This document shows positions 910 to 56,023 of a stretch of DNA of 64,000 bases, piece by piece. This stretch comes from an uncultured Candidatus Peribacteria bacterium. GTDB taxonomy: Bacteria; Patescibacteriota; Gracilibacteria; Peribacterales; Peribacteraceae. The position numbers were made by a program, and so were the translations under genes. The notes below the pieces were generated by a model. The model was not told where the DNA came from. It made no database searches and saw nothing but the letters and a program-made list of their open reading frames with translations. Each line of letters opens with the position of its first letter. The stretch's first letter is position 1. The stretch is from positions 10,033 through 74,032 of the forward strand of contig CAZXKA010000002.1 of the NCBI GenBank assembly GCA_964641555.1. The letters are read 5' to 3'.

Positions 910-920
910 GACGATAGAAT

Positions 921-974
921 ACAGAAGCAGAGAGCAGAAGCAGAATCTGCTTCTCCTTCTACATTCTGCTTCTA
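921..974. repeat. Nested inverted repeat of the AGAAGCAGA/TCTGCTTCT family (copy 1)
   Basis: AGAAGCAGA 923-931 pairs with TCTGCTTCT 965-973 (9 bp), and GAAGCAG 937-943 pairs with CTGCTTC 947-953 (7 bp). The repeat fills the gap between the S41 peptidase stop (972-974) and the RNase H ATG (909). The 19-mer ACAGAAGCAGAGAGCAGAA at 921-939 is identical to 14101-14119. Confidence 0.8.
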
Positions 975-5178: not shown

Positions 5179-5613
5179 TTAGGAAAGCGGCCAGAGACGA
5201 AGCATCGCGAACGCGGCGAACACGGTGAGACACGCAAGACCGATGACCGTGCCGATGACCGCGCGCCGGTGGTCGCCCTCCCGCGCGCTCAGGACGATGC
5301 TGAGCCCGCCGTAGAGCAAGCCGACGGCGAGGAGCGGCGTGGGGATCGTCGTCAGCAGCACCTGGCTCCACGGCATCCACAGCCCTTGTCGCCAAAGGAC
5401 CTCCATGCCGAACAGCAGGAGTCCGAGGATGGTGAAGAGGACGGCCGAGAGCTTGTGCAAAAAGTGAATCACGGGCGAAGGATACGTTACTTTGTTTTCT
5501 TCTGCACCGTAATCCTCTTTCGCCCCTGGGCACGTCGCCGCGCGATGACCTGGCGGCCCTTCATCGTCGCTTTGCGCGAGAGGAATCCGTGTTTCCGAAG
5601 CCGGCGGCGCCAT
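5179..5613 (-). CDS. Small membrane protein (3 predicted TM helices); start uncertain
   Basis: The C-terminal 97 aa are hydrophobic (VIHFLHKLSAVLFTILGLLLFGMEV..LACLTVFAAFAMLRLW). ATG 5613 follows a TTGACC-17-TACCCT promoter. An alternative GTG start at 5472 would give a 97 aa protein. Confidence 0.5.
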   Translation of the reverse strand: MAPPASETRIPLAQSDDEGPPGHRAATCPGAKEDYGAEENKVTYPSPVIHFLHKLSAVLFTILGLLLFGMEVLWRQGLWMPWSQVLLTTIPTPLLAVGLLYGGLSIVLSAREGDHRRAVIGTVIGLACLTVFAAFAMLRLWPLS

Positions 5614-5641
5614 TTGAGCTTTCCAAGCATAGTGCTGCGGG

Positions 5642-5670
5642 AGGGTAACGATGCTTACGAAATGGGTCAA
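5642..5670 (-). promoter_or_regulatory. Candidate promoter for the small membrane protein gene
   Basis: On the minus strand: TTGACC (5670-5665), 17 nt spacer, TACCCT (5647-5642). Confidence 0.4.
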
Positions 5671-5676
5671 GCGATT

Positions 5677-5751
5677 AGAGAAGAAGCAGAAAACGGTTAA
5701 AAACGATTTTTTTGCCATAATCACTGCTTCTGCATTCTCCTTCTGCTTCTT
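5677..5751. repeat. AGAAGCAGA/TCTGCTTCT-family inverted repeat (copy 2)
   Basis: AGAAGCAGAA 5682-5691 pairs with TTCTGCTTCT 5741-5750 (10 bp) across a 49 nt spacer that contains an AAAAA-cga-TTTTT mini-hairpin. The right arm abuts the stop codon at 5751-5753 of the adenosyltransferase gene. Confidence 0.75.
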
Positions 5752-6293
5752 TACTCGTACCGTACCGTCTCCTCCGTCACCCCTGCCGCCGCATTGGCCG
5801 TTCGGGCGGCTATAAAGAGCAAATCGCTCAGGCGGTTCAGATAGATGAGGGCTTCGGGGTTGATCGCTTCTTCTTGTGAGAGGGCGACGACGCTGCGTTC
5901 CGCCCGGCGGCAGACGGCCCGGGCTTCATGGAGCAGCGCGCCGCTGCGGTGACCGCTCGGCAAGATGAAATGCGTGAGCGGCGGGAGCTTCGGTTCCATG
6001 CGGCCGATCCACGCGTCGAGCACCGTTACGTGCGACGCCTGGATACGTTCAGTGTGCGCTTTCGTATCCAGCGGCGACGCGATGTCGGCTCCCAACGTGA
6101 AAAGCCGGTGCTGCACCGTCTCGAGCGCGACTTCGACGTCTTTCGGCATCCGCTCGCAGCGCACGACGCCGATCACCGCGTTCAATTCGTCGACGTCGCC
6201 CACGGCCGCGATGCGCAGGTCTGCTTTCGAGACGCGCGTGCCGCCGACCAAACCGGTGGTGCCTTTGTCGCCGGTGCGCGTGACGATGGTCAT
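5751..6293 (-). CDS. PduO-type ATP:cob(I)alamin adenosyltransferase
   Basis: MTIVTRTGDKGTTGLVGG..DVDELNAVIG is the typical N-terminus of the PduO/MMAB family. The gene overlaps pheT by 4 nt. Confidence 0.85.
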   Translation of the reverse strand: MTIVTRTGDKGTTGLVGGTRVSKADLRIAAVGDVDELNAVIGVVRCERMPKDVEVALETVQHRLFTLGADIASPLDTKAHTERIQASHVTVLDAWIGRMEPKLPPLTHFILPSGHRSGALLHEARAVCRRAERSVVALSQEEAINPEALIYLNRLSDLLFIAARTANAAAGVTEETVRYE

Positions 6294-8680
6294 GGGGTTA
6301 TTGGGGATTGCGTCACTTTCCCATGCTCCTTCTTCGCTTCGTCGTCCGTCAGTGTTCGGTCATTCGCTCGGTAGGTGAACCGCAGGGTGACGTTGTACGA
6401 CCCTCGCTCGACGCCTTGGCCGTCGTACAAATCGCGGACCGTGATGTCTTCGAGCAACGGCGATGCTTTCCGCATGGCTGCGACCATGGGACCGATCGGT
6501 TCCGTATGCGAGCGCTTGAATGTGACGTCGTAGCTGATGGCGGGGTGTGCGGGGAGCGGCGTCGATTTCATGATGGCGCCGGCGAGTGAGCCGAGGGCCG
6601 TGAGGTCGATCGTGGCGGCGGCCGCCCGATGCGGCAGATCGAACGCGTTGATGATGGTGGGGTGCACATCGAACACTCTGGCGGCCTCGGTCGATCCGAC
6701 CGTGATGACGCACGCCCGTCCCGGATGCGCGGGGGCGGGAGGATTCGTATCGCGCTCCACGGTCGCCGAGAAGCCGAGTGTCTTCAAGAGGTGCATCGTG
6801 CGTTCGATGGCGACCAAGAACGGATCGTCCAGGAGCGACGAATGCCCGAGCACCAGCAGTCCGCACTCGGAGCGTTCGGGGGCATCCTTCGCGAACACGT
6901 GCGAGCAGTGGAAGGTCGCGAGCGTTCCTTCCGCGAGCAAGTGATTGCGGCGTGCGTGGTCCAGCAGGTGGGGGAGCGTGCTCGTCTGCAGGAGCGACAG
7001 TTCTTCGACGAGCGGGTTGGCGATCGCGATCGCGCGGGCGGGATCGACTCCCGCTTGGCGCAGGAGCTGGGGGCCTACGAGCGAGAGCGGGAGGATCTGG
7101 CGCAGACCGTCGGCGGCGAGCGCGCGCGTGACCCGCTGTTCGATGCTCTCGCCGGGAATCGGTCGCAGGAGTCCGTGCGGACGCGTCTCCGGGATCCGTT
7201 CGTAGCCGTACGCGCGGGCGATTTCTTCGATGAGGTCGTGTGCGCCGAGCAGGTCGCGGAGTCTCCAGAGTGGTGGTGTCACAGAGAGAACAGGTGCGGA
7301 TGTATTCTTGGATCGAGCTGTGGGTTTCTGGACCGTGCATCCAAGCGATTCGAGGATCGTTACGACGTCTTTTGCCGGCAGGTCGACGCCGAGCATCGAT
7401 GCCACGCGGTCGAGGGGAAGCTTGATCGTCGGCGCCGTGCCGTCCGTTCCCCATTCTTCGAGTTTGGAGACGATGCGCGCGCCGGGGATGAGCGTGAGGA
7501 AGAGCTCGAGCGCGCGGTAGAACCCCGCTTCCATGTGGACGGGCGGGACGCTCTTCTCGAAGATCGTCGCGGCGTCCGTGCGGTGGCCCGTCGCTTGGAT
7601 GGTTTTGCGGATGAGAATCGGATCGGGGACGGGGCCCTGCAGGAAGATGCGGCGCGTCTTCTCCGAAATGCTCGTTCGTTTGCCGCCCATCATCGAGACC
7701 AAGTCGAAGATGCCATCATCGTCGCTGATGACGAGCGCACCTTCGGGGAGCGCGCGGTCGACGCCGTCGAGCGTCCGGATCGTCTCTCCCGCCTTCGTCA
7801 TGCGCAGTTCGATATCACCGCGGATGTCGTCGCGGTCGAACGCGTGGAGCGGCGCGCCCCATTCGAGCATGACGGTGTTCGTGATGTCGACGGGGAGCGA
7901 AATCGGGCGGATACCGACCGCCTCGAGCCGGCGCTTCATCCAGTCCGGCGTCTCGCCCGGCGCATCGATGTCGATGGCGCAGCCGAGGTAGCGGACGACC
8001 GACGCTTTGGCGGGGGTCTTGAACGCGAAGGGGAGCGGGGTCTTCGGGAACGTGGGGGCCGAGCGCTTCGGTTCGCCCTTCGCTTTCGCGAGTCCGAGTG
8101 CGATGCACTCGCGCGCCATGCCGCGGTGCGACCACAGGTCCGGGCGGGTCGTGATCGCGGTGTTGTTCACGTCGAGGACCGTGTCTCCTCCGCCGAGTGC
8201 TTCCGCCAGCGGCATACCCGTCTTCATGGATCCGAGATCGACGATCGGGCGTTCGCCGTCCTCGGGCTTCGGCGGGAACTGTGTTTCGATGCCCAGTTCT
8301 TCCGCCGCGCAGATCATGCCGTGGCTCTCCTCGCCGCGGATCTTCACCGGTGCCAGCGTCATCGTCTCTCCGCCGTGCCACTTCACGGTGGCGCCCACGT
8401 GCGCGAACGCGACCTTCATACCGACGCGCAGATTCGTCCCGCCGCAGACGACCTTCTTCTCTCCCCGGTCCGTCTTCACGGATGCGAGAAGCAACTTATC
8501 CGCGTTCGGATGTCGATCGATCGAAAGAATTTCGCCGACGCAGCAGTGCTCAAGCAGTTCGCCGCTGCGGATGACGTCTTCCACTTCGGCCGTGCTCAGG
8601 GTCAGCCGTTCGGCGATCTTCAGCGGATCTTTTTCCGTCCATGCAACGTACTCGCCAAGCCAGTCGAGAGAAATCTTCAT
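6290..8680 (-). CDS. pheT: Phenylalanine--tRNA ligase beta subunit
   Basis: 796 aa. It has MKISLDWLGEYV and an N-terminal tRNA-binding domain, a B3/4 and B5 layout, and a C-terminal anticodon-binding-like domain. No pheS is adjacent. Confidence 0.93.
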   Translation of the reverse strand: MKISLDWLGEYVAWTEKDPLKIAERLTLSTAEVEDVIRSGELLEHCCVGEILSIDRHPNADKLLLASVKTDRGEKKVVCGGTNLRVGMKVAFAHVGATVKWHGGETMTLAPVKIRGEESHGMICAAEELGIETQFPPKPEDGERPIVDLGSMKTGMPLAEALGGGDTVLDVNNTAITTRPDLWSHRGMARECIALGLAKAKGEPKRSAPTFPKTPLPFAFKTPAKASVVRYLGCAIDIDAPGETPDWMKRRLEAVGIRPISLPVDITNTVMLEWGAPLHAFDRDDIRGDIELRMTKAGETIRTLDGVDRALPEGALVISDDDGIFDLVSMMGGKRTSISEKTRRIFLQGPVPDPILIRKTIQATGHRTDAATIFEKSVPPVHMEAGFYRALELFLTLIPGARIVSKLEEWGTDGTAPTIKLPLDRVASMLGVDLPAKDVVTILESLGCTVQKPTARSKNTSAPVLSVTPPLWRLRDLLGAHDLIEEIARAYGYERIPETRPHGLLRPIPGESIEQRVTRALAADGLRQILPLSLVGPQLLRQAGVDPARAIAIANPLVEELSLLQTSTLPHLLDHARRNHLLAEGTLATFHCSHVFAKDAPERSECGLLVLGHSSLLDDPFLVAIERTMHLLKTLGFSATVERDTNPPAPAHPGRACVITVGSTEAARVFDVHPTIINAFDLPHRAAAATIDLTALGSLAGAIMKSTPLPAHPAISYDVTFKRSHTEPIGPMVAAMRKASPLLEDITVRDLYDGQGVERGSYNVTLRFTYRANDRTLTDDEAKKEHGKVTQSPITP

Positions 8681-8734
8681 CGAGCGTCAGAGTAACGCGA
8701 ACGGCGGCGAAAAACGAGCACTGAAAGATGGCGA

Positions 8735-8787
8735 AGAGACCGGAGACACGGAGACCAGACGGTCCGGTCTCTGGTCTCTTGGTCTCT
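8735..8787. repeat. GAGACC/GGTCTC inverted array (copy A) between the divergent pheT and rpmB genes
   Basis: Left units are AGAGACC 8735-8741, GGAGAC 8742-8747 and GGAGACC 8750-8756. Right units are GGTCTCT at 8766, 8773 and 8781. GAGACCAGA 8751-8759 pairs with TCTGGTCTC 8770-8778. The 12-mer GAGACCGGAGAC (8736-8747) recurs at 19802-19813. Confidence 0.8.
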
Positions 8788-8815
8788 GGACGTCTTTTTA
8801 AACCTGTTTTTCCGA

Positions 8816-8844
8816 TTGACGGTACTCTTGGCAATCCCTACTAT
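8816..8844 (+). promoter_or_regulatory. Sigma70-like promoter of rpmB
   Basis: TTGACG (8816-8821), 17 nt spacer, TACTAT (8839-8844), then 10 nt to ATG 8855. Confidence 0.6.
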
Positions 8845-9115: not shown

Positions 9116-9514
9116 TTAGAGGATTGGCTTTCGTAGTTCCTTGATCTCTGATTGATGGTGTTTTTCTTGCAACATCTTCTCCTTCGCGCGGCGGCTGCGG
9201 CGGTCTTTCTGTTTCTTGCGTTTGAACGCGGCGCGCATGAGCTTGGATTCCTTGCCGCGCTTCTCGACTTCGATTTTCAGCAACAATAATTTGAACGCTT
9301 CCCGGCGGTTCAGCGCTTGCGATCGATGCGTATCGCCGCGAACCGTGACGCCCGTCGGAAGATGTTTCAGCATCACGGCGCTGCTGGTTTTATTCACTTT
9401 CTGCCCGCCTTTGCCGCTGCCACGCACGAACTGTTCTTCCACGTCCTCCGGCCGCACGCTTAGCTCCCGCGCCAGGCGCTCCATCGAGACCGACATGTTG
9501 GCGGGGAAGGCCAT
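9116..9514 (-). CDS. arfB: ArfB/YaeJ-like peptidyl-tRNA hydrolase (RF-1 domain, ribosome rescue)
   Basis: GGQ motif (GSGKGGQKVNKTSSAV) plus a lysine/arginine-rich C-terminal tail. TAGAAT (9526-9521) lies 6 nt upstream of the ATG. Confidence 0.85.
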   Translation of the reverse strand: MAFPANMSVSMERLARELSVRPEDVEEQFVRGSGKGGQKVNKTSSAVMLKHLPTGVTVRGDTHRSQALNRREAFKLLLLKIEVEKRGKESKLMRAAFKRKKQKDRRSRRAKEKMLQEKHHQSEIKELRKPIL

Positions 9515-9537: not shown

Positions 9538-9627
9538 TGGCGGAGAGGGGGAGATTCGAACTCCCGAGACCCTTTCAGGTCTACACGCTTTCCAAGCGTG
9601 CGCACTAGGCCACTATGCGACCTCTCC
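9538..9627 (-). tRNA. tRNA-Ser (anticodon GGA), CCA encoded
   Basis: Hand-folded cloverleaf. Acceptor stem GGAGAGG/CCUCUCC; anticodon arm CACGC-UUGGAAA-GCGUG; long variable arm UAGACCUGAAAGGGUCUC; T arm GGGAG-UUCGAAU-CUCCC; 3' end G-CCA. Confidence 0.9.
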
Positions 9628-9682
9628 GTGCATTGACGGGGCCGAAGTATAAGCACGAACGGAGTCCGTGTACACTGTCCAT

Positions 9683-13668: not shown

Positions 13669-14085
13669 CTAGGCGGCAGGGGGGTCCGCCACCGTTTCGA
13701 CCCAGGATTGAGGGGGAAAAGCCAAGGAGATGCGGAGGGTGTTCTGGAGGGTGTGAAGACCCATCAGAGCGCATTTCATGCGGCGGGCGCTGACGGGAAC
13801 GCCCAGGAGTTCGAGCATGTCTTTCTTCCTGAGGCTGAGGATGTTTTCGGCCGTTCGACCGATGATGTGCTCGGAGAGGAACGACATGCCGGCCTGGCTG
13901 ATCGCGCAGCCGCTGCCGAGCCAACCGACGTCGCGGACGACGCCGTCCTCCACGCGCAGTTCCAGGCGAATTCTGTCGCCGCAGCTGGGGTTTGATTCGT
14001 CGTGCACCGCCGTTGCATCGGCGATGGACCCCGCATGGCGCGGATGCTTGGAGTGATCGAGGATTTGGTCGGCGTAGAGATCCAT
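13669..14085 (-). CDS. sufU: SufU/IscU-like Fe-S cluster scaffold or sulfur acceptor
   Basis: MDLYADQILDHSKHPRH..NPSCGD..GSGCAIS..RMKCAL shows the three conserved Cys residues. The gene is immediately downstream of sufS. Confidence 0.88.
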   Translation of the reverse strand: MDLYADQILDHSKHPRHAGSIADATAVHDESNPSCGDRIRLELRVEDGVVRDVGWLGSGCAISQAGMSFLSEHIIGRTAENILSLRKKDMLELLGVPVSARRMKCALMGLHTLQNTLRISLAFPPQSWVETVADPPAA

Positions 14086-14123
14086 GACGAGAAGCAGAAA
14101 ACAGAAGCAGAGAGCAGAATCGA
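14086..14123. repeat. Half-copy (single arm) of the AGAAGCAGA family; it forms the entire sufS-sufU spacer
   Basis: On the plus strand: GAGAAGCAGAAAACAGAAGCAGAGAGCAGAAT. On the mRNA (minus) strand this is a CU-only tract ending CUUCUCGUC-AUG. It shares a 19-mer with 921-939 and a 17-mer with 35775-35791. Confidence 0.75.
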
Positions 14124-19218: not shown

Positions 19219-19231
19219 TAAGCTGGTGCCG

Positions 19232-20374
19232 ATGAAGACGATTCTTTTGGTCACGCCCTACTGGCGCGAACAGCACCGGTGGATGGTGAGCGGCTACAAA
19301 CTCGCCGAGCTCTGGCAGCGCCTGGGGTATCGGGTCGTCGTGACGTGCATGGGGTCGGAGACGAAGACGGAGCGCATGTCCGATACGCTGGCCGTGCATT
19401 CCCGGAAAGACGTGTTTTTGAAAGATCCGTGGAACTACGGTATTTCTCTTGGCTTTGGCGGCGATGTCGCGCGCATCGCACAAAAGGAAAAGCCGGACAT
19501 CATCGTCATCAACAAATTATTGTTCTGGTCATCGCTCGCATCATTCTCGCTTCGGTTGCGCGGATATCGTGTCATTCAAATCACGGACGCTTTGGTAGGC
19601 ATGACATGGTGGCCACGCGGGAAGATTCCGCAATTCTGCGCGGCGATCTACGCATGGACGATCGGTTGGTTGTTGCTAAAAATCGCGTCGAAGATTGTGT
19701 TTTTTCATCCGCAGCCAGAACCATTGCTACGAAGACTGGGTATCACGCAGAAGACACGTGTTATTCCTACTGGTATCGATCCAGCGCCTTTTAGGAGACC
19801 AGAGACCGGAGACCAGAATGCTCGTCCGGCCTCTGTGTCTCCGGTCTCATCGTCCGTCGTCGTCACGTATGTCGGACGTTTGGAATCTGTGAAGGGCGTC
19901 GATGATTTTCTTGCGGCAACCGATTCACTCATTGATGAATATTCTCATGTGAAAGTTCAAGTGGCCGGTTGGTATCCGGATAAGCATCCGCTCGTGGAGC
20001 AATACGAAAGAAACGTCGCATTTCTTGGATTAGTAGACGATGTGGCCAATGTTCTGGTTCGGACCGATATCTTCGTCCTTCCCAGCCACAGCGAGGGCCT
20101 CAGCAACGCGCTGATGGAAGCCATGGCATCGAAGTGTGCGTGCATCGCGTCGGACGTCGGCGGGAACCGATATTTGATCGAGAACGGCCTCTCCGGTCTC
20201 CTCTTTCCGGCAGGGGATCGCGAGGCGCTGCGGTCGCATATCCGAAGACTCGTGCAGGATCCGGCGAAACGAAAAGCGATGGGTGACGCCGCACGGGCGC
20301 GCGTCGATGCGGTGTTCAGTTGGGAAAAAGTAGGGAAGCAGTATGAAGAACTCTTCCGTTCGATCCACGCATGA
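19232..20374 (+). CDS. GT4 family glycosyltransferase
   Basis: VTYVGRLESVKGVDDFL..LPSHSEGLSNALMEAMASKCACIASDVGGN is the E-x7-E region. ATG 19232 is preferred over GTG 19226. Confidence 0.88.
   Translation: MKTILLVTPYWREQHRWMVSGYKLAELWQRLGYRVVVTCMGSETKTERMSDTLAVHSRKDVFLKDPWNYGISLGFGGDVARIAQKEKPDIIVINKLLFWSSLASFSLRLRGYRVIQITDALVGMTWWPRGKIPQFCAAIYAWTIGWLLLKIASKIVFFHPQPEPLLRRLGITQKTRVIPTGIDPAPFRRPETGDQNARPASVSPVSSSVVVTYVGRLESVKGVDDFLAATDSLIDEYSHVKVQVAGWYPDKHPLVEQYERNVAFLGLVDDVANVLVRTDIFVLPSHSEGLSNALMEAMASKCACIASDVGGNRYLIENGLSGLLFPAGDREALRSHIRRLVQDPAKRKAMGDAARARVDAVFSWEKVGKQYEELFRSIHA
19794..19848. repeat. GAGACC/GGTCTC-family inverted repeat (copy B) inside the GT4 ORF
   Basis: GGAGACCAGA occurs at 19794-19803 and 19808-19817. 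GAGACCGGAGAC 19802-19813 pairs perfectly with GTCTCCGGTCTC 19837-19848 (12 bp, 23 nt spacer). It is in frame and encodes RRPETGDQNARPASVSPVS in the inter-domain linker. Confidence 0.8.
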
Positions 20375-22438: not shown

Positions 22439-22498
22439 TCGTCTGAGGCCGGATCTCGGGCCAAAATACAACAAGCAGTCGGTTGCCGATTGCATGAA

Positions 22499-22530
22499 GA
22501 GCCACCCATGTGGGTGGCTCTTTGCTTATG
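22499..22530. terminator. Intrinsic terminator hairpin between convergent genes
   Basis: AAGAGCCACC(ca tg tg)GGTGGCTCTT: the 12-mer at 22499-22510 pairs with 22513-22524, followed by TGCTTA on the plus strand. Confidence 0.65.
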
Positions 22531-33444: not shown

Positions 33445-34454
33445 AGGCTGACGGGGGAGCGGGCGACGAGCGATCGGTCGGCTGCCTCGAGAATGCGCAG
33501 CATCATGAGGCCTTCCGTTGCGCCGGCGATCGGCATGTCCTTGCCGTTCACGCAGGCCAGCACGTGCAGCAGTTCGGTTTTGAGCGTTTCGGTGTTGTCG
33601 AGTTTGGGGATGAGCACGTCGCCCGAGCGGTAGATGGGGAAGAGCGGGTCCGCGGGTTGCGCTTCGCCGATCCGTTTCTGGACGCCCGTGTCGTAAATTT
33701 TCAGCTTTTCCGAGGGGTGGATGTCGTCGAACAGGACCATCTTCTTCGTGCCGCCGATGATCGTCTGGCGGATCTTCACCGGCGAGAGCCAACTCACGTG
33801 CACGTGCGCGTCGAAGCCGTCCTTCCAGGAGAGGTGCAAATGCCCGATCTCGCGGTGTTCGCCGTGGTGGCTGCTGCCGTGTGCGAACACCGTGTCGATG
33901 CCGTTGAGATCTTTCAGCTGCCCAAGCATCGCCAAATCGTGGATGGCCAGATCCCAGAGGACGTTTACGTCCGGCTGGATGAGCCCCAGGTTGATGCGCG
34001 TGGAATCGAAGTAGTAGAGCTCGCCGAGCTCGCCGCTCTCCACGAGTTCTTTTAGTTTCCGCACGGCGCCGGCGAACGCGAACGTATGGTCAACGAAGAG
34101 GAGTTTGTTCTGCTTCTTCGCGAGAGCGATGAGCTCTTCGGCTTCGGCGGAAGACGACGCCATCGGCTTTTCGACGAACACGTGCTTGCCGGCGTCGAGC
34201 GCGCGCTTGGCGAGAGGGAAGTGGGTCTTGGTCGGCGTCGCGATGGCGATGAGATCGACCGCGTCGTCGGCGAACACGTCGTCCATCGACGTCGTCGTGC
34301 GGATCGTCGGATAGTTCGACCGGACCTTGGCGAGATTCGATTCCTTCAGATCGCACGCCCAGCGCACGTCCCACTCGTCGATCGACGCGAAGTTGCGGAG
34401 CAAATTCGGTCCCCAGTATCCCAGGCCGATGATGGCGACGGATCGCCGGTTCAC
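33441..34454 (-). CDS. Gfo/Idh/MocA family sugar-nucleotide oxidoreductase (WbpB-like)
   Basis: GTG start 34454 in a GTGA overlap with the upstream stop. VAIIGLGYWGPNLL and VFVEKPMASS. Confidence 0.85.
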   Translation of the reverse strand: MNRRSVAIIGLGYWGPNLLRNFASIDEWDVRWACDLKESNLAKVRSNYPTIRTTTSMDDVFADDAVDLIAIATPTKTHFPLAKRALDAGKHVFVEKPMASSSAEAEELIALAKKQNKLLFVDHTFAFAGAVRKLKELVESGELGELYYFDSTRINLGLIQPDVNVLWDLAIHDLAMLGQLKDLNGIDTVFAHGSSHHGEHREIGHLHLSWKDGFDAHVHVSWLSPVKIRQTIIGGTKKMVLFDDIHPSEKLKIYDTGVQKRIGEAQPADPLFPIYRSGDVLIPKLDNTETLKTELLHVLACVNGKDMPIAGATEGLMMLRILEAADRSLVARSPVSL

Positions 34455-35758: not shown

Positions 35759-35773
35759 GCGGGGAGTGTACCC

Positions 35774-35867
35774 GAGAAGCAGAAAACAGAAACAGAAAGC
35801 AGAGTCCTCGGCCTTTCGGTATTCTGGGACATGTTTTCTGCTTCTCCTTTCTGTTTCTGCTTCTTCC
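35774..35867. repeat. Largest AGAAGCAGA/TCTGCTTCT-family inverted repeat (copy 4), in a divergent intergenic region
   Basis: The purine arm is GAGAAGCAGAAAACAGAAACAGAAAGCAGAG (35774-35804). The pyrimidine arm is TTTTCTGCTTCTCCTTTCTGTTTCTGCTTCTTCC (35834-35867). A perfect 13 bp stem forms between CAGAAACAGAAAG 35787-35799 and CTTTCTGTTTCTG 35847-35859. Confidence 0.8.
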
Positions 35868-35868
35868 T

Positions 35869-39106: not shown

Positions 39107-39140
39107 GAAAAATCAGGAGAGACGACGTTCGTCTCTCCTG
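39107..39140 (-). terminator. Intrinsic terminator of the orphan RNA gene
   Basis: On the minus strand: CAGGAGAGACGA-acg-TCGTCTCTCCTG (12 bp stem, 39140-39114) followed by AUUUUUC (39113-39107). Confidence 0.75.
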
Positions 39141-39366
39141 TCCTGGACGGGATCTTGAGCGGGGAGGATGGGACCGAAGTCCGTCGCTCCGTTCGGTATG
39201 CAAGGGCGGTGTTTCACTTGTGACTCAGCGAGGCCCAGAGGCCGGCGTCAACGTCTACCGCCTACTCTACGCAGGCACACCTAGCTTCTGACCGCACATG
39301 TAAGGAGTCGAACCTCCGAAATCCCGAAGGATTCCGCCGCCACCGGGTGCGTTCCCGTTGCCAGGA
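39108..39366 (-). ncRNA. Orphan structured RNA of about 255 nt, class not recognised
   Basis: It has its own promoter and terminator and no plausible ORF. There are two UUCG-tetraloop hairpins (39171-39182 and 39318-39335) and a T-loop-like GGAG-GUUCGA-CUCC (39304-39317). The 5' end CCUGGcaACGGGA (39365-39353) pairs with the 3' end UCCCGUCCAGG (39152-39142). Confidence 0.6.
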
Positions 39367-39371
39367 TCGAT

Positions 39372-39399
39372 ATAGTATACTTAATTTATATATTGTCAA
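39372..39399 (-). promoter_or_regulatory. Near-consensus sigma70-like promoter driving the orphan RNA
   Basis: On the minus strand: TTGACA (39399-39394), 16 nt spacer, TACTAT (39377-39372). It sits in a roughly 40 nt AT-rich block that is conspicuous in this GC-rich DNA. TACTAT is the same -10 hexamer as in the rpmB promoter. Confidence 0.6.
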
Positions 39400-39440
39400 A
39401 TACAGGCGGAAGCCCAGCTCTCTGCTACTCTAAACGTCTC

Positions 39441-53899: not shown

Positions 53900-56023
53900 A
53901 TGGCCGCGATGCGTTGGTTGTCGTTCTTCCGCCGTCCAAAACACCCGTTTCATGCGCTGGCGACAGAGCCGGCGTACGGCATGCTTCTCGTGGCGATCCA
54001 TGCGTTCGTCACGGCACTGGTAGTCGTTCCATTGCTGTTTCCCGAGCTGGATTTCTGGCGAAATCTCTCACCGAACGGAGGCGTGAAGACGTACGTCGGG
54101 CTCGTCGGAGGCATCGGCGGCGCGATCGTGCTCCTGCGGTGGTTCGTGCCGCGCCTATGGCAGCGCGATTGGGGCGTGTACGGCGCGCTCGTTGCGAAAC
54201 TGTGTCTCCTCACAGTGCTTCTTGTTCTGTTCAACACTTCTTCGTTTGTAACAGCGATCATCGTACTTATTGCAAGCATCGCGATCATCCCGACCGCGAT
54301 ATTCGTCCATGCCGATCGCGAACACGCGGTCCGCGTCGCGCTCGCCGTCTTCGCCGCGGCCGCCGCGCTGATCGTCAGTTTCTCAGCGGAAGATTACTTC
54401 GCCTTCCAAGCGGATCGTTTGGTGTTCGCAACCGTGCTTGCGACCGTCGCGCTGTTCGGTAGTACGTATTGGTGGCTGGGGCGTGAGCCGACGCGCTTCC
54501 GCTTCTTCGATGGCGTCGTCGTTCTGTTCTTCATTGCGTTGCCGTTTCTCTCGGCCGGTCGGTGGGACTTGTACCACTACGGATTGATCCTCGGTCCGGT
54601 TCAAGAGCTGCTCCACAACGGTCGTTTGCCGTTCAGCGATCTCCATGCCTACTACGGCACGGGCCTCACGGTCTTCCTTGCCGGATGGTTCTCGCTTCTG
54701 GGTATCGTCTCGGCGGAAGGGCTTCTGCTTCTTCAAAAATTACTGCTCTCCGGTGCGTACGTCGCGTTGTACGCGCTCTGTCGCTCGCTATGGGGTGACC
54801 GCCGCCTCTCGTTCCTCGCGACGTTCGCCACGTTCGCGTTCTACGGTGCATTCCTCGGTCCTGTCGCGTACGAAACGCCCTCGAGCGGAATGCTCCGCTA
54901 CGGCTGGATGGTCGTCGTCCTGTTGCTCCTCACGCTTCGACAGAGACGACCGATGGCATGGCTGTGGGTCGATATATTCATCGCTTTCATCTGCGCGATC
55001 GCGACGCTGTGGTCGTCCGATAACGTGCTCTACACGGTCGTGCCCGTCTTCGCGTTGCTCGTGCTCGGATGGGAATGGCGGCGATTGGGGATCACGTTAG
55101 GCGCGTACGTTGGATTCTCTGTTGTGCTGCTATTTTTTCTCAGCGCACCAGCGTTACTGGCGGGAGAGCGCATCCACTTCTCGCTCTACAGCGAATACCA
55201 AGCGGTACACGCCGCGGGATTCGGCGGGGGCATCATCGCGCTGCGCGATCTCTTCTGGCTCTTACCGGCGTTCATGGGTCTGGGATTCGCTCTCCGTCGT
55301 GCCGATCGCCCCCAAGATGAGCGCGTCACGCTTCTCGCGCTGTGGTGTCTCGCGACGCTGTCGTATTTCGTGTGGCACGGCCACTGGAAAGTCCTGCCGT
55401 CTGTCTCGTTTGCGTTCGTCGTTCTGGCCATCGCTGGCGCTCGTCTCCTTCCGCAAGCACTATCGCGGATCGTGTCATCGGTCATCGTGGCCGTTTTTCT
55501 TTCATCGCTGTATCTGCCGGCGGCCCATCTGTTGTCCGGTCGCGATGCCGTTCTTGCATCAGCGGGCGACCGGTCGCTCTTGATGTCGAATGCACCGTGG
55601 ATGCACGACGAATTCCGGCGGCGCCGCTGTTCCGACGATGTCTTGGCGCTTCGGCCGTACGTCGAGAGCGGCGGCCTCGCGCTCCTGTTGGATCGGCATG
55701 ATGCGTACAACATTTACGTCTGTCTCGGTACCGGGAACGCGTTCAACATCGATCCGACGCAGGCGTTGGAATTTCCCGGGATCGGCGATGCGCTGTTGGA
55801 GAACGTACGCACAACGCGTACGCAGTATCTTCTCGTCGGCGATCCGAGTGTGCCGTTTATCGCTCATGCTGCGGATCGTCTCAGCCCGATCATCGGCAGT
55901 CGCACGATGCGCGTCGTTCCGACCCAGAAGCTCGATGCGTTGATCGAAGAACTGTCGCTGCGTCCCATCGATACGATCGAGGTCTACGGCGAACCCCTGA
56001 CGATCTACCGCCGCTTGCCATGA
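53900..56023 (+). CDS. Polytopic membrane protein (about 708 aa), GT-C-like candidate
   Basis: The real part of ORF 53639..56023. ATG 53900, or 53909 (MRWLSFFRRP). Many TM helices and a soluble C-terminal domain. Confidence 0.65.
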   Translation: MAAMRWLSFFRRPKHPFHALATEPAYGMLLVAIHAFVTALVVVPLLFPELDFWRNLSPNGGVKTYVGLVGGIGGAIVLLRWFVPRLWQRDWGVYGALVAKLCLLTVLLVLFNTSSFVTAIIVLIASIAIIPTAIFVHADREHAVRVALAVFAAAAALIVSFSAEDYFAFQADRLVFATVLATVALFGSTYWWLGREPTRFRFFDGVVVLFFIALPFLSAGRWDLYHYGLILGPVQELLHNGRLPFSDLHAYYGTGLTVFLAGWFSLLGIVSAEGLLLLQKLLLSGAYVALYALCRSLWGDRRLSFLATFATFAFYGAFLGPVAYETPSSGMLRYGWMVVVLLLLTLRQRRPMAWLWVDIFIAFICAIATLWSSDNVLYTVVPVFALLVLGWEWRRLGITLGAYVGFSVVLLFFLSAPALLAGERIHFSLYSEYQAVHAAGFGGGIIALRDLFWLLPAFMGLGFALRRADRPQDERVTLLALWCLATLSYFVWHGHWKVLPSVSFAFVVLAIAGARLLPQALSRIVSSVIVAVFLSSLYLPAAHLLSGRDAVLASAGDRSLLMSNAPWMHDEFRRRRCSDDVLALRPYVESGGLALLLDRHDAYNIYVCLGTGNAFNIDPTQALEFPGIGDALLENVRTTRTQYLLVGDPSVPFIAHAADRLSPIIGSRTMRVVPTQKLDALIEELSLRPIDTIEVYGEPLTIYRRLP

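Follow-up and report, generated by a model that had tools for sequence, protein, structure and literature searches.

What are the low-GC (guanine-plus-cytosine), purine/pyrimidine-asymmetric inverted repeats that recur in the few gaps between genes of a compact bacterial genome? The question is raised by a 64,000-nucleotide (nt) stretch of an uncultured Candidatus Peribacteria bacterium (assembly GCA_964641555.1, contig CAZXKA010000002.1, positions 10,033 to 74,032), referred to here as the window. An earlier note, made from the letters alone, had singled out such repeats, here called family A, and had proposed three roles for them: terminators or processing sites lacking a U-tract, CU-rich translation leaders independent of Shine-Dalgarno pairing, or binding sites for a protein or RNA. 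We find that family A is a recent, lineage-specific, copied and hairpin-forming insertion family confined to gene boundaries, which occupies four clusters in the window:

921 to 974, no strand assigned: family A copy 1, with the left (purine) module at 921-945 and the right (pyrimidine) module at 946-974, forming a nested hairpin.
5677 to 5751, no strand assigned: family A copy 2, with the left module at 5677-5693, a loop of ~26 nt and the right module at 5720-5751.
14086 to 14123, minus strand: family A copy 3, with the left module on the plus strand only and a pyrimidine run on the coding strand, filling the 38-nt sufS-sufU spacer.
35772 to 35868, no strand assigned: family A copy 4, with the left module at 35772-35806, a loop at 35807-35831 and the right module at 35832-35868.

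The window has a GC content of 62%, and its intergenic DNA, defined after genes had been called from codon statistics, Pfam domains and synteny, comes to 1,737 nt (2.7%), of which the four clusters make up ~15%. The 9-mer AGAAGCAGA and its complement have 13 exact matches against 0.38 expected from dinucleotide-preserving shuffles, none of which reached 13, and the 17-mer AGAAGCAGARARCAGAA occurs four times against an expectation of zero. The two long identities reported earlier proved exact on re-checking: ACAGAAGCAGAGAGCAGAA (19 nt) at 921-939 is identical to 14101-14119, and AGAAGCAGAAAACAGAA (17 nt) at 14090-14106 is identical to 35775-35791. Among simulated arms, sharing of at least 19 nt arose in 1 of 2000 runs under a first-order Markov model and in 8 of 2000 under a second-order model, both trained on the arms themselves and thus a generous null. 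The copies therefore share more than composition, in agreement with the previous judgment that the identities are too long for chance.

These units are also placed far from randomly. Eleven of the 13 exact 9-mers are intergenic, all inside the four clusters (p = 4e-16 per 9-mer; 8e-6 per cluster), and single exact units in coding DNA number two in 62 kb, so that the description of a true repeat family at gene boundaries holds. Two weaker copies that had been listed alongside were lost when a profile built from the seven family A arms was used to rescore the window and its relatives. The site at 39417-39440 was not recovered and corresponds to TACTCT, the -10 box of the gene that follows, while that at 54722-54751 is a lone unit in coding DNA at chance level (profile E = 3 at 54721), as is the exact unit at 34109. 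A reading of the units as DNA uptake sequences (DUS/USS) was rejected on the same distribution. Uptake sequences consist of one invariant 9-12-mer, single or in inverted pairs, spread over coding and non-coding DNA at about one per kb, whereas here 11 of the 13 exact units form tandem degenerate arrays in four spacers and only two are singles in coding DNA. A likeness of their NAG-triplet periodicity to the binding sites of TRAP, HutP and Hfq was set aside as numerology.

The elements are 38-97 nt in size, and a full copy is built from two different arms, a left module containing CGAGAAGCAGAAAACAGAAGCAGAGAGCAGAATC and an imperfectly complementary right module. The left module has the consensus CGAGAAGCAGAAAACAGAA[G/A]CAGA[G/A]AGCAGA[A/G]TC and its versions at loci 3 and 4 agree in 31 of 34 positions; at locus 1 the first unit is absent and one GCAGAA is added, and at locus 2 only the first 17 nt are present. 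The right module, TCTGCTTCTCCTT(T)CT...TTCTGCTTCT, is found at loci 1, 2 and 4 and in an extra copy described below; it complements the left module imperfectly and does not mirror it exactly. The sub-repeats that make up the two modules are purine-rich and 6-7 nt long, with CAG every 6-7 nt; their number differs between copies, and the two arms are 81-83% complementary over 23-27 nt, so that terminal inverted repeats are present. The predicted folds are as follows:

Copy 1: -32 kcal/mol, z = -3.9, a strong nested hairpin.
Copy 2: -24 to -25 kcal/mol, z = -1.7 to -2.9, a 12-bp stem with a long loop.
Copy 3: about -5 kcal/mol, z = -0.4, the left module alone, with no fold.
Copy 4: -49 kcal/mol, z = -5.0, a strong hairpin.

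The nested hairpin proposed earlier for copy 1 is thus recovered. Every hairpin has its purine arm first and its pyrimidine arm second, an order that is the same on both strands. Among strand-asymmetric hairpins of this clade, 18 are purine-first and 3 pyrimidine-first; in 1.5 Mb of unrelated loci the numbers are 41 and 19, most of them classical A-tract/T-tract terminators.

The evidence for recent insertion comes from syntenic contigs of relatives (L119-L121, L242-L245 and L261-L263; candidate Peribacteraceae with 75-91% protein identity, ~160 kb in all). The best named relatives are metagenome-assembled genomes of Candidatus Peregrinibacteria and Peribacteraceae, at 70-78% identity. Neither a regular expression nor the arm profile (no match with E < 1) found a family A unit in these ~160 kb, and all four orthologous junctions are short empty sites. 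The absence of the units, together with the empty orthologous sites in relatives of 84-91% protein identity, marks the copies as recent lineage-specific insertions.

At the first junction, the features adjoining copy 1 are:

972 to 974, minus strand: TAG, the stop of the gene (972-2702) for the S41 (CtpA-like) peptidase; the outer repeat unit extends over it.
916 to 921, minus strand: -10-like box TATTCT of the RNase H gene, 6 nt before the ATG at 909-907 and adjoining copy 1.

As described before, the outer arm lies over the S41 stop and the pyrimidine arm ends 11 nt from the RNase H ATG; Pfam agrees with the S41, RNase H, SufU and SufS assignments. The S41-RNase H junction measures 20 nt in L243 and L245 (TGAagcggTAGTATcgggaacgaATG) versus 62 nt in the window, and the RNase H gene of the relatives has TAGTAT 9 nt before its ATG. 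The resulting order is stop codon, hairpin, TATTCT, 6 nt and ATG.

Copy 2 directly follows the TAA stop (5751-5753) of a PduO-type adenosyltransferase gene and precedes a gene that had gone unrecognized:

5642 to 5670, minus strand: rpmH promoter, with a -35 box TTGACC (5665-5670), a 17-nt spacer and a -10 box TACCCT (5642-5647).
5487 to 5630, minus strand: rpmH, encoding ribosomal protein L34 (47 amino acids; translation MLGKLKWRRRLRKHGF...), called as L34 in the relatives.

The true downstream gene is rpmH; a 144-amino-acid open reading frame considered in its place was discarded, synteny showing rpmH in a different frame. Its promoter (TTGACC-17-TAnnnT) is kept in four genomes (the window, L242, L243 and L245) and ends 11 nt from the ATG. 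The adenosyltransferase-rpmH junction spans 53 nt in L242, L243 and L245 versus 120 nt in the window, in which the stop codon is followed by the hairpin and, 6 nt further on, by the conserved -35 box. A separate hairpin of 11-12 bp over the rpmH stop (5473-5525), with its purine arm in the coding end and its pyrimidine arm after the stop, looks like an ordinary terminator for rpmH.

Copy 3 alone lies at an intra-operon junction, whose two genes are coupled in translation in relatives, and it alone lacks a second arm. The sufS and sufU genes overlap (TGATG) in three relatives and are separated by an unrelated 34-nt spacer in L119. A co-occurring relative, seen in contigs of runs X2 and X3 (aligned to window 14052-14090), carries a different purine-rich run in the same spacer (GACGAG|TGATTAGTAGGTAGTGGTGAGCGG), and the CTCGTCATG junction is common to these contigs and the window.

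Copy 4 stands between a divergent pair, a methyltransferase gene (ATG 35758-35756, minus strand) and a gene for a 535-amino-acid membrane protein (TTG 35869, plus strand):

35765 to 35770, minus strand: -10-like box TACACT of the methyltransferase gene, 6 nt before its ATG and kept beside the insertion; TAGACT occupies the same place in L261.

In L261, the closest relative here (91% amino-acid identity), the two starts are 24 nt apart with two back-to-back -10 boxes, versus 110 nt in the window. The insertion removed the ATG, three codons and the -10 box of the 535-amino-acid gene, whose start is now the TTG 1 nt past the pyrimidine arm. Across the five copies, counting the extra one, two-armed elements lie at transcription-unit boundaries and the inside of an operon mRNA holds only an unstructured single arm. 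This division into two-armed boundary copies and a single-armed operon copy is suggestive, not proven.

Family A is no assembly artefact, a possibility that the earlier note had named as one that would undo its case. Independently assembled Logan contigs from three wastewater runs cover loci 1-4 without a single difference and so reproduce these loci. The organism reaches ~5-8x word depth in two of the three wastewater-metagenome runs, which belong to one study, and is patchy in the third. One short-read contig of run X2 ends at 35816, within the copy 4 loop, indicating that such hairpins can break low-coverage assemblies. The same data yielded a fifth copy. A 1,303-nt contig of run X1 matches the window at 5720-5751 only, with both flanks different and equal depth; this copy lies either elsewhere in the same genome or in a co-occurring genome. 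Its sequence reads ...GAATGTAGAAGGAGAAAACGAAAATAGCAT | ATCACTGCTTCTGCTTCTCCTTCTGCTTCTT | CTATACTCGTCCCATG..., with the purine arm first, and it adjoins a -10 box TATACT that is followed by 6 nt and an ATG. An apparent 1-nt deletion at 5734 had looked like a population polymorphism; this was rejected, as the difference belongs to the separate contig with another family A copy.

The position of the copies relative to promoters bears directly on whether the pyrimidine arm could serve in translation. Shine-Dalgarno sites are nearly absent from the window's genes. A TAnnnT box lies 5-11 nt before the start in 12 of the 25 gap-preceded genes against a background of 2.5%, and at exactly 6 nt in six, among them RNase H (TATTCT) and the methyltransferase (TACACT); examples are found at 916-921, 8689-8694 and 35765-35770 and upstream of the starts at 9514, 9683, 11767 and 62450. 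This arrangement suggests that transcription in this genome may be driven by -10 boxes and largely leaderless. With a -10 box 6 nt from the ATG, the RNase H and methyltransferase mRNAs probably begin at the ATG itself, leaving the pyrimidine arm upstream of the transcript; sufU and the 535-amino-acid gene are the only ones whose mRNA must include the arm. Strongly AT-rich islands upstream of glycan-cluster genes (window 39350-39422; L242 12828-12932; L119 3761-3852; L121 2208-2283 and 3144-3218) contain, in each genome, hexamers resembling promoters on either strand, along with a ..GTCAAA.. motif that recurs.

The suggestion that the pyrimidine arm is a CU-rich leader, recognized without Shine-Dalgarno pairing through ribosomal protein S1 or standby binding, consequently divides by locus. 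It appears to fail for RNase H, the methyltransferase and the gene beside the extra copy, all with a predicted -10 box 6 nt before the ATG and the arm upstream of the predicted start, and for rpmH, where the arm is upstream of the -35 box. It is possible for sufU, whose mRNA has an unstructured pyrimidine run immediately 5' of the ATG, and for the 535-amino-acid gene, where the arm ends 1 nt from the TTG and the insertion displaced the former ATG and -10 box. The general absence of Shine-Dalgarno sites would suit such a leader, but other genes lacking these sites do without a CU run, orthologs are expressed without the arm, and a full-length transcript would lock the arm into a hairpin of -32 to -49 kcal/mol. 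As an account of the family we hold it to be highly improbable.

A second set of elements, family B, has a similar design with other units. It has two hairpins in the window and matching regions in one relative:

8734 to 8789, no strand assigned: purine-first family B hairpin made of GAGACC(A/G) units; the -10 box of pheT (8689-8694) lies on one side and the promoter of rpmB (8816-8844), divergent from it, on the other.
19795 to 19849, plus strand: family B hairpin, in frame within a GT4 glycosyltransferase gene (19226-20374), in the linker that joins its two domains.
6198 to 6300 and 9558 to 9639 of relative L243: family B.

Units of this family (GAGACCAAG/GAGGCCAAG) lie at the orthologous rpmB-pheT spacer in L243 and L244 and also after the rpmH stop, and are absent from L242 and L245. 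In the glycosyltransferase, whose Pfam domains end at residue 189 and resume at 212, the insert supplies most of the extra linker residues RRPETGDQNARPASVSPVSS, the linker being ~17 residues longer. This one family B copy is the only in-frame copy seen; family A has no copy in coding sequence. The ortholog in L121 has no insert. That in L119 (5393-5459; 85% identity) has a different tandem-unit hairpin (GCGGGTA/GCAGGTA) in the same linker, showing that the same site has been occupied by different families. A palindromic repeat of another kind is present in a further Peribacteraceae relative (L262 and L263; 874-kb contig), where a ~130-nt repeat with a perfect 29-nt palindrome CCACTTTCTTTTGCGTCAAAAGAAAGTGG, pyrimidine arm first, is seen at L262 9886-9914 and 14593-14621 and at L263 1-27.

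The recurrence of different units at the same sites (the glycosyltransferase linker of the window and L119; the sufS-sufU spacer of the window and the co-occurring relative) could be read as scars of break repair, in which a templated polymerase or reverse transcriptase extends the two 3' ends with identical purine-rich tandem units before they are joined. On either strand the product would of itself read purine arm, loop and pyrimidine arm. One such step would give tandem units, inverted symmetry, invariant polarity, genome-specific units and single-armed copies all at once. It is nevertheless pure inference, with neither such an enzyme nor a template found in the window, and family A does not carry one array in both arms: its left and right modules differ from each other, and each is met again at other loci, a feature favoring the copying of whole elements. 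We accord it only the faintest probability.

A broader proposal takes all of these elements together. Peribacteraceae and related genomes of the candidate phyla radiation (CPR) might carry an undescribed class of mobile palindromes, with purine-first arms of 6-9-nt sub-repeats, genome-specific units and recurrent permissive sites (stop/-10 junctions, divergent spacers and a protein linker), which turn over by a structure- or break-directed process unlike that of REP/RAYT or MITE elements and supply terminators or insulators to genomes relying on -10-only promoters and leaderless mRNAs. We consider this generalization rather unlikely.

For family A itself, we favor, at roughly even odds, a narrower explanation: a genome-specific, small, non-coding palindromic insertion element of the kind represented by REP/REPIN sequences, miniature inverted-repeat transposable elements (MITEs) and Rickettsia palindromic elements (RPEs), kept at transcription-unit boundaries as a terminator or insulator that works without a U-tract. 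The copies would have entered very short intergenic spacers after the split from relatives of 84-91% protein identity, and would persist where a strong hairpin is harmless, just after a stop codon and just before the -10 or -35 box of the next gene; in the sufS-sufU operon, the single arm would leave no hairpin possible. Read-through RNA of the upstream gene is predicted to fold, its 5' purine arm pairing with its 3' pyrimidine arm. Pyrimidine-RNA:purine-DNA is the weakest type of hybrid in established nucleic-acid thermodynamics. The stable stem would form while RNA polymerase holds just such a hybrid, which may provoke release or stalling without a U-tract, in a geometry and polarity resembling those of true bidirectional intrinsic terminators. 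At copies 1 and 2 the outcome could be termination, insulation of the next unit or protection of the 3' end. Copy 4 and the family B hairpin at 8734, between divergent promoters, may never be transcribed and might be tolerated or act on DNA supercoiling, and for sufU and the 535-amino-acid gene the pyrimidine arm would be mere unstructured 5' sequence before the start codon. The terminator or insulator effect as such is a deduction from sequence and predicted folding, and any function it may have is dispensable, given relatives without the elements.

The part of the earlier proposal that saw U-tract-less terminators fits loci 1 and 2, with their succession of stop codon, hairpin and promoter, but neither locus 3, which has no hairpin and lies within an operon, nor locus 4, between divergent starts. 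A stem-loop directly after a stop at the end of a unit is accordingly seen at copies 1 and 2 and at neither of the others. Several further observations weigh against a mobile element with a terminator role. The relatives do without a hairpin at the same boundaries. No U-rich tract follows the stems (the tail of copy 1 reads GUAUUCUAUCGUC), and a generic promoter/terminator consensus scan showed no enrichment and did not flag the family A copies. Copy 4 and the 8734 hairpin lie between divergent promoters with nothing obvious to terminate, and one family B copy is inside a gene. On the side of mobility, comparison with the empty sites revealed no target-site duplication at any site and element ends that are not clean, and copy 2 is a ~73-nt insert in place of ~8 nt, which is not a simple insertion. 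The copies share only modules of 17-34 nt and are not near-identical. Five have been seen in total, four in the 64-kb window and one on another contig, and the contigs of runs X1 and X2 contained no further copy when aligned to copy 1 (912-978, 80% likeness) and to copies 4 and 3 (85%). Lastly, none of the ~58 open reading frames of the window encodes a transposase, reverse transcriptase or integrase; the remaining content consists of housekeeping genes and a large cell-envelope glycan cluster.

The same order of stop codon, hairpin and promoter at copies 1 and 2, the great stability of the hairpins and a polarity like that of true bidirectional terminators might also suit dedicated regulatory cis-elements, selected as terminators, attenuators or RNA-processing sites and not spreading at all. 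The family A elements are not conserved at 84-91% amino-acid identity; they lack a U-tract, copy 4 sits between divergent starts, and the window also contains GC-rich hairpins that resemble ordinary terminators, at 22439-22525 and 39108-39140. Selection of this kind without spread appears distinctly unlikely to us.

Four or five copies adjoin promoters, which raises the prospect of action at the level of DNA, as arrays bound by a nucleoid protein or regulator or as a cruciform or triplex absorbing negative supercoils on the promoter side. Negative supercoils build up between divergent promoters, the setting of the hairpins at 35772 and 8734; the sub-repeats keep a regular period of 6-7 nt, and purine/pyrimidine-asymmetric BoxC/TMECO motifs adopt non-B structures (PMC4666352). 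The palindrome center, however, lies at anything from about -36 to -80 relative to the start site, and so variable a geometry speaks against a fixed operator. A C interrupts the arms every 6-7 nt and a third block is absent, so the pattern of an intrastrand triplex does not apply. The relatives keep the same promoters without family A, and a candidate binding protein was not identified. Taken together, a role in DNA structure or protein binding strikes us as improbable.

A neutral origin, with no activity at all, is a further alternative. Microsatellite-derived quasi-palindromes, arising when 6-7-nt units slip and fold-back template switching or gene conversion follows, would simply be tolerated in the few permissive spacers of a very compact genome. 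Close relatives lack the elements, so they are dispensable; unit number differs between copies; and no RNA function is apparent for the family B copy in a protein linker or for other copies in spacers between divergent promoters. Arrays such as (AGAAGC)n are common in metagenomes, and tandem-unit hairpins or purine runs also occur in unrelated bacteria, including a (GCAGAGG)n hairpin at L041 5810-5950 (Acidobacteriota), (AGAAAGC)9 after a stop codon at L089 1413-1478 (Acidobacteriota) and a (GAAGGTGT)4 hairpin at L146 4266-4363 (a metagenome contig). What local slippage and fold-back fails to explain is the presence of 19-34-nt two-arm modules common to loci 13-35 kb apart, and it likewise leaves without explanation the consistent purine-arm-first polarity and the single arm of the sole intra-operon copy. 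We judge such a neutral origin unlikely, though it retains appreciable weight.

No described family matches these elements, consistent with the first impression that they belong to none. An Rfam search gave nothing above threshold, returning only sub-threshold noise resembling microRNA hairpins. Scanning genome contigs with the 17-mer produced, among the matches listed, chance matches that were nearly all single and from unrelated taxa. A metagenome-contig scan with AGAAGCAGAN{2,4}CAGAAGCAGA listed chance matches and (AGAAGC)n microsatellites, with no listed locus related to the window by blastn, and viral contig scans gave unrelated coding matches or nothing. A limited full-text search found no paper describing such repeats in CPR bacteria.

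Comparison with known systems places family A closest to palindromic insertion elements while setting it apart from each. REP/REPIN sequences are similarly short, non-coding, hairpin-forming and extragenic, often after stop codons, lineage-specific and without target-site duplication. REPs are mobilized by RAYT transposases and are thought to act as terminators, stabilizers of mRNA 3' ends and protein-binding sites. They carry a GT[A/G]G end, whereas family A ends in (C)GAGAAGCAG... and ...CTGCTTCT, with GTAG in copy 1 only, as part of the TAG stop. Family A further differs in its arms of 25-38 nt, its low GC within a 62% GC genome, its strand asymmetry and 6-7-nt tandem sub-repeats, and in having modules in common instead of a tight consensus; a RAYT gene was not seen among the ~58 open reading frames of the window. 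Classical bidirectional intrinsic terminators share the location after stops and the purine-rich 5' side and pyrimidine-rich 3' side on both strands. They differ from family A in their GC-rich core and U-tract, in place of which family A has 20-30-bp stems of mixed A/G:U/C pairs with bulges, and some of its copies stand where no transcript end is expected. The cyanobacterial STRR heptamer repeats, reportedly described by Mazel et al. in 1990, are said to be plain direct tandem arrays of 7-nt units, non-coding and lineage-specific, whereas family A is distinguished by paired inverted arrays and two distinct modules.

MITEs, among them Correia/NEMIS, ERIC and the RU elements of enterobacteria, resemble family A as small non-autonomous elements with inverted terminal arms that lie beside genes. 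Their insertion can introduce promoters and terminators or disrupt existing ones, and some lie inside genes (PMC3184786, PMC2759123). Family A departs from them in lacking target-site duplications and clean boundaries; no related insertion sequence is in the window, and its copies are far more divergent. RPEs and the organelle repeats of Volvox (PMC2670323) are lineage-specific palindromes that spread in a small compact genome, some of them in frame at permissive positions within genes, which invites comparison with family B in the glycosyltransferase linker. Here, by contrast, there is one in-frame copy, of family B, the elements are shorter and made of tandem units, and the host is a free-standing CPR bacterium. 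The enterobacterial BoxC/TMECO motifs are likewise interspersed, intergenic, homopurine/homopyrimidine-asymmetric and variable between close relatives, and have been linked to local genome instability (PMC4666352). TMECO is GC-rich and consists of three blocks, CCCTCNCCC followed by two of GGGNGAGGG (PMC4666352), whereas family A has two arms and is AT-rich; with a C every 6-7 nt in the purine strand and only two arms, it does not follow triplex rules. Family A stands out by arms built of tandem sub-repeats, by a purine arm that always comes first, by a low GC content although the genome is rich in GC, and by abutting -10 boxes in a CPR genome with probably leaderless mRNAs.

The presence of such elements shows that a Peribacteraceae-like genome with 2.7% intergenic DNA still gains lineage-specific hairpin insertions. 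In well-studied bacteria, REP, MITE and RPE sequences influence where operons end, how stable mRNAs are and how plastic the genome is. Should family A indeed act as a terminator or insulator, the copies would show how genomes with -10-only promoters, leaderless transcripts and no Shine-Dalgarno sites mark the ends of their transcription units. Even as purely selfish elements, they would serve as fast-evolving presence/absence markers for strain tracking.

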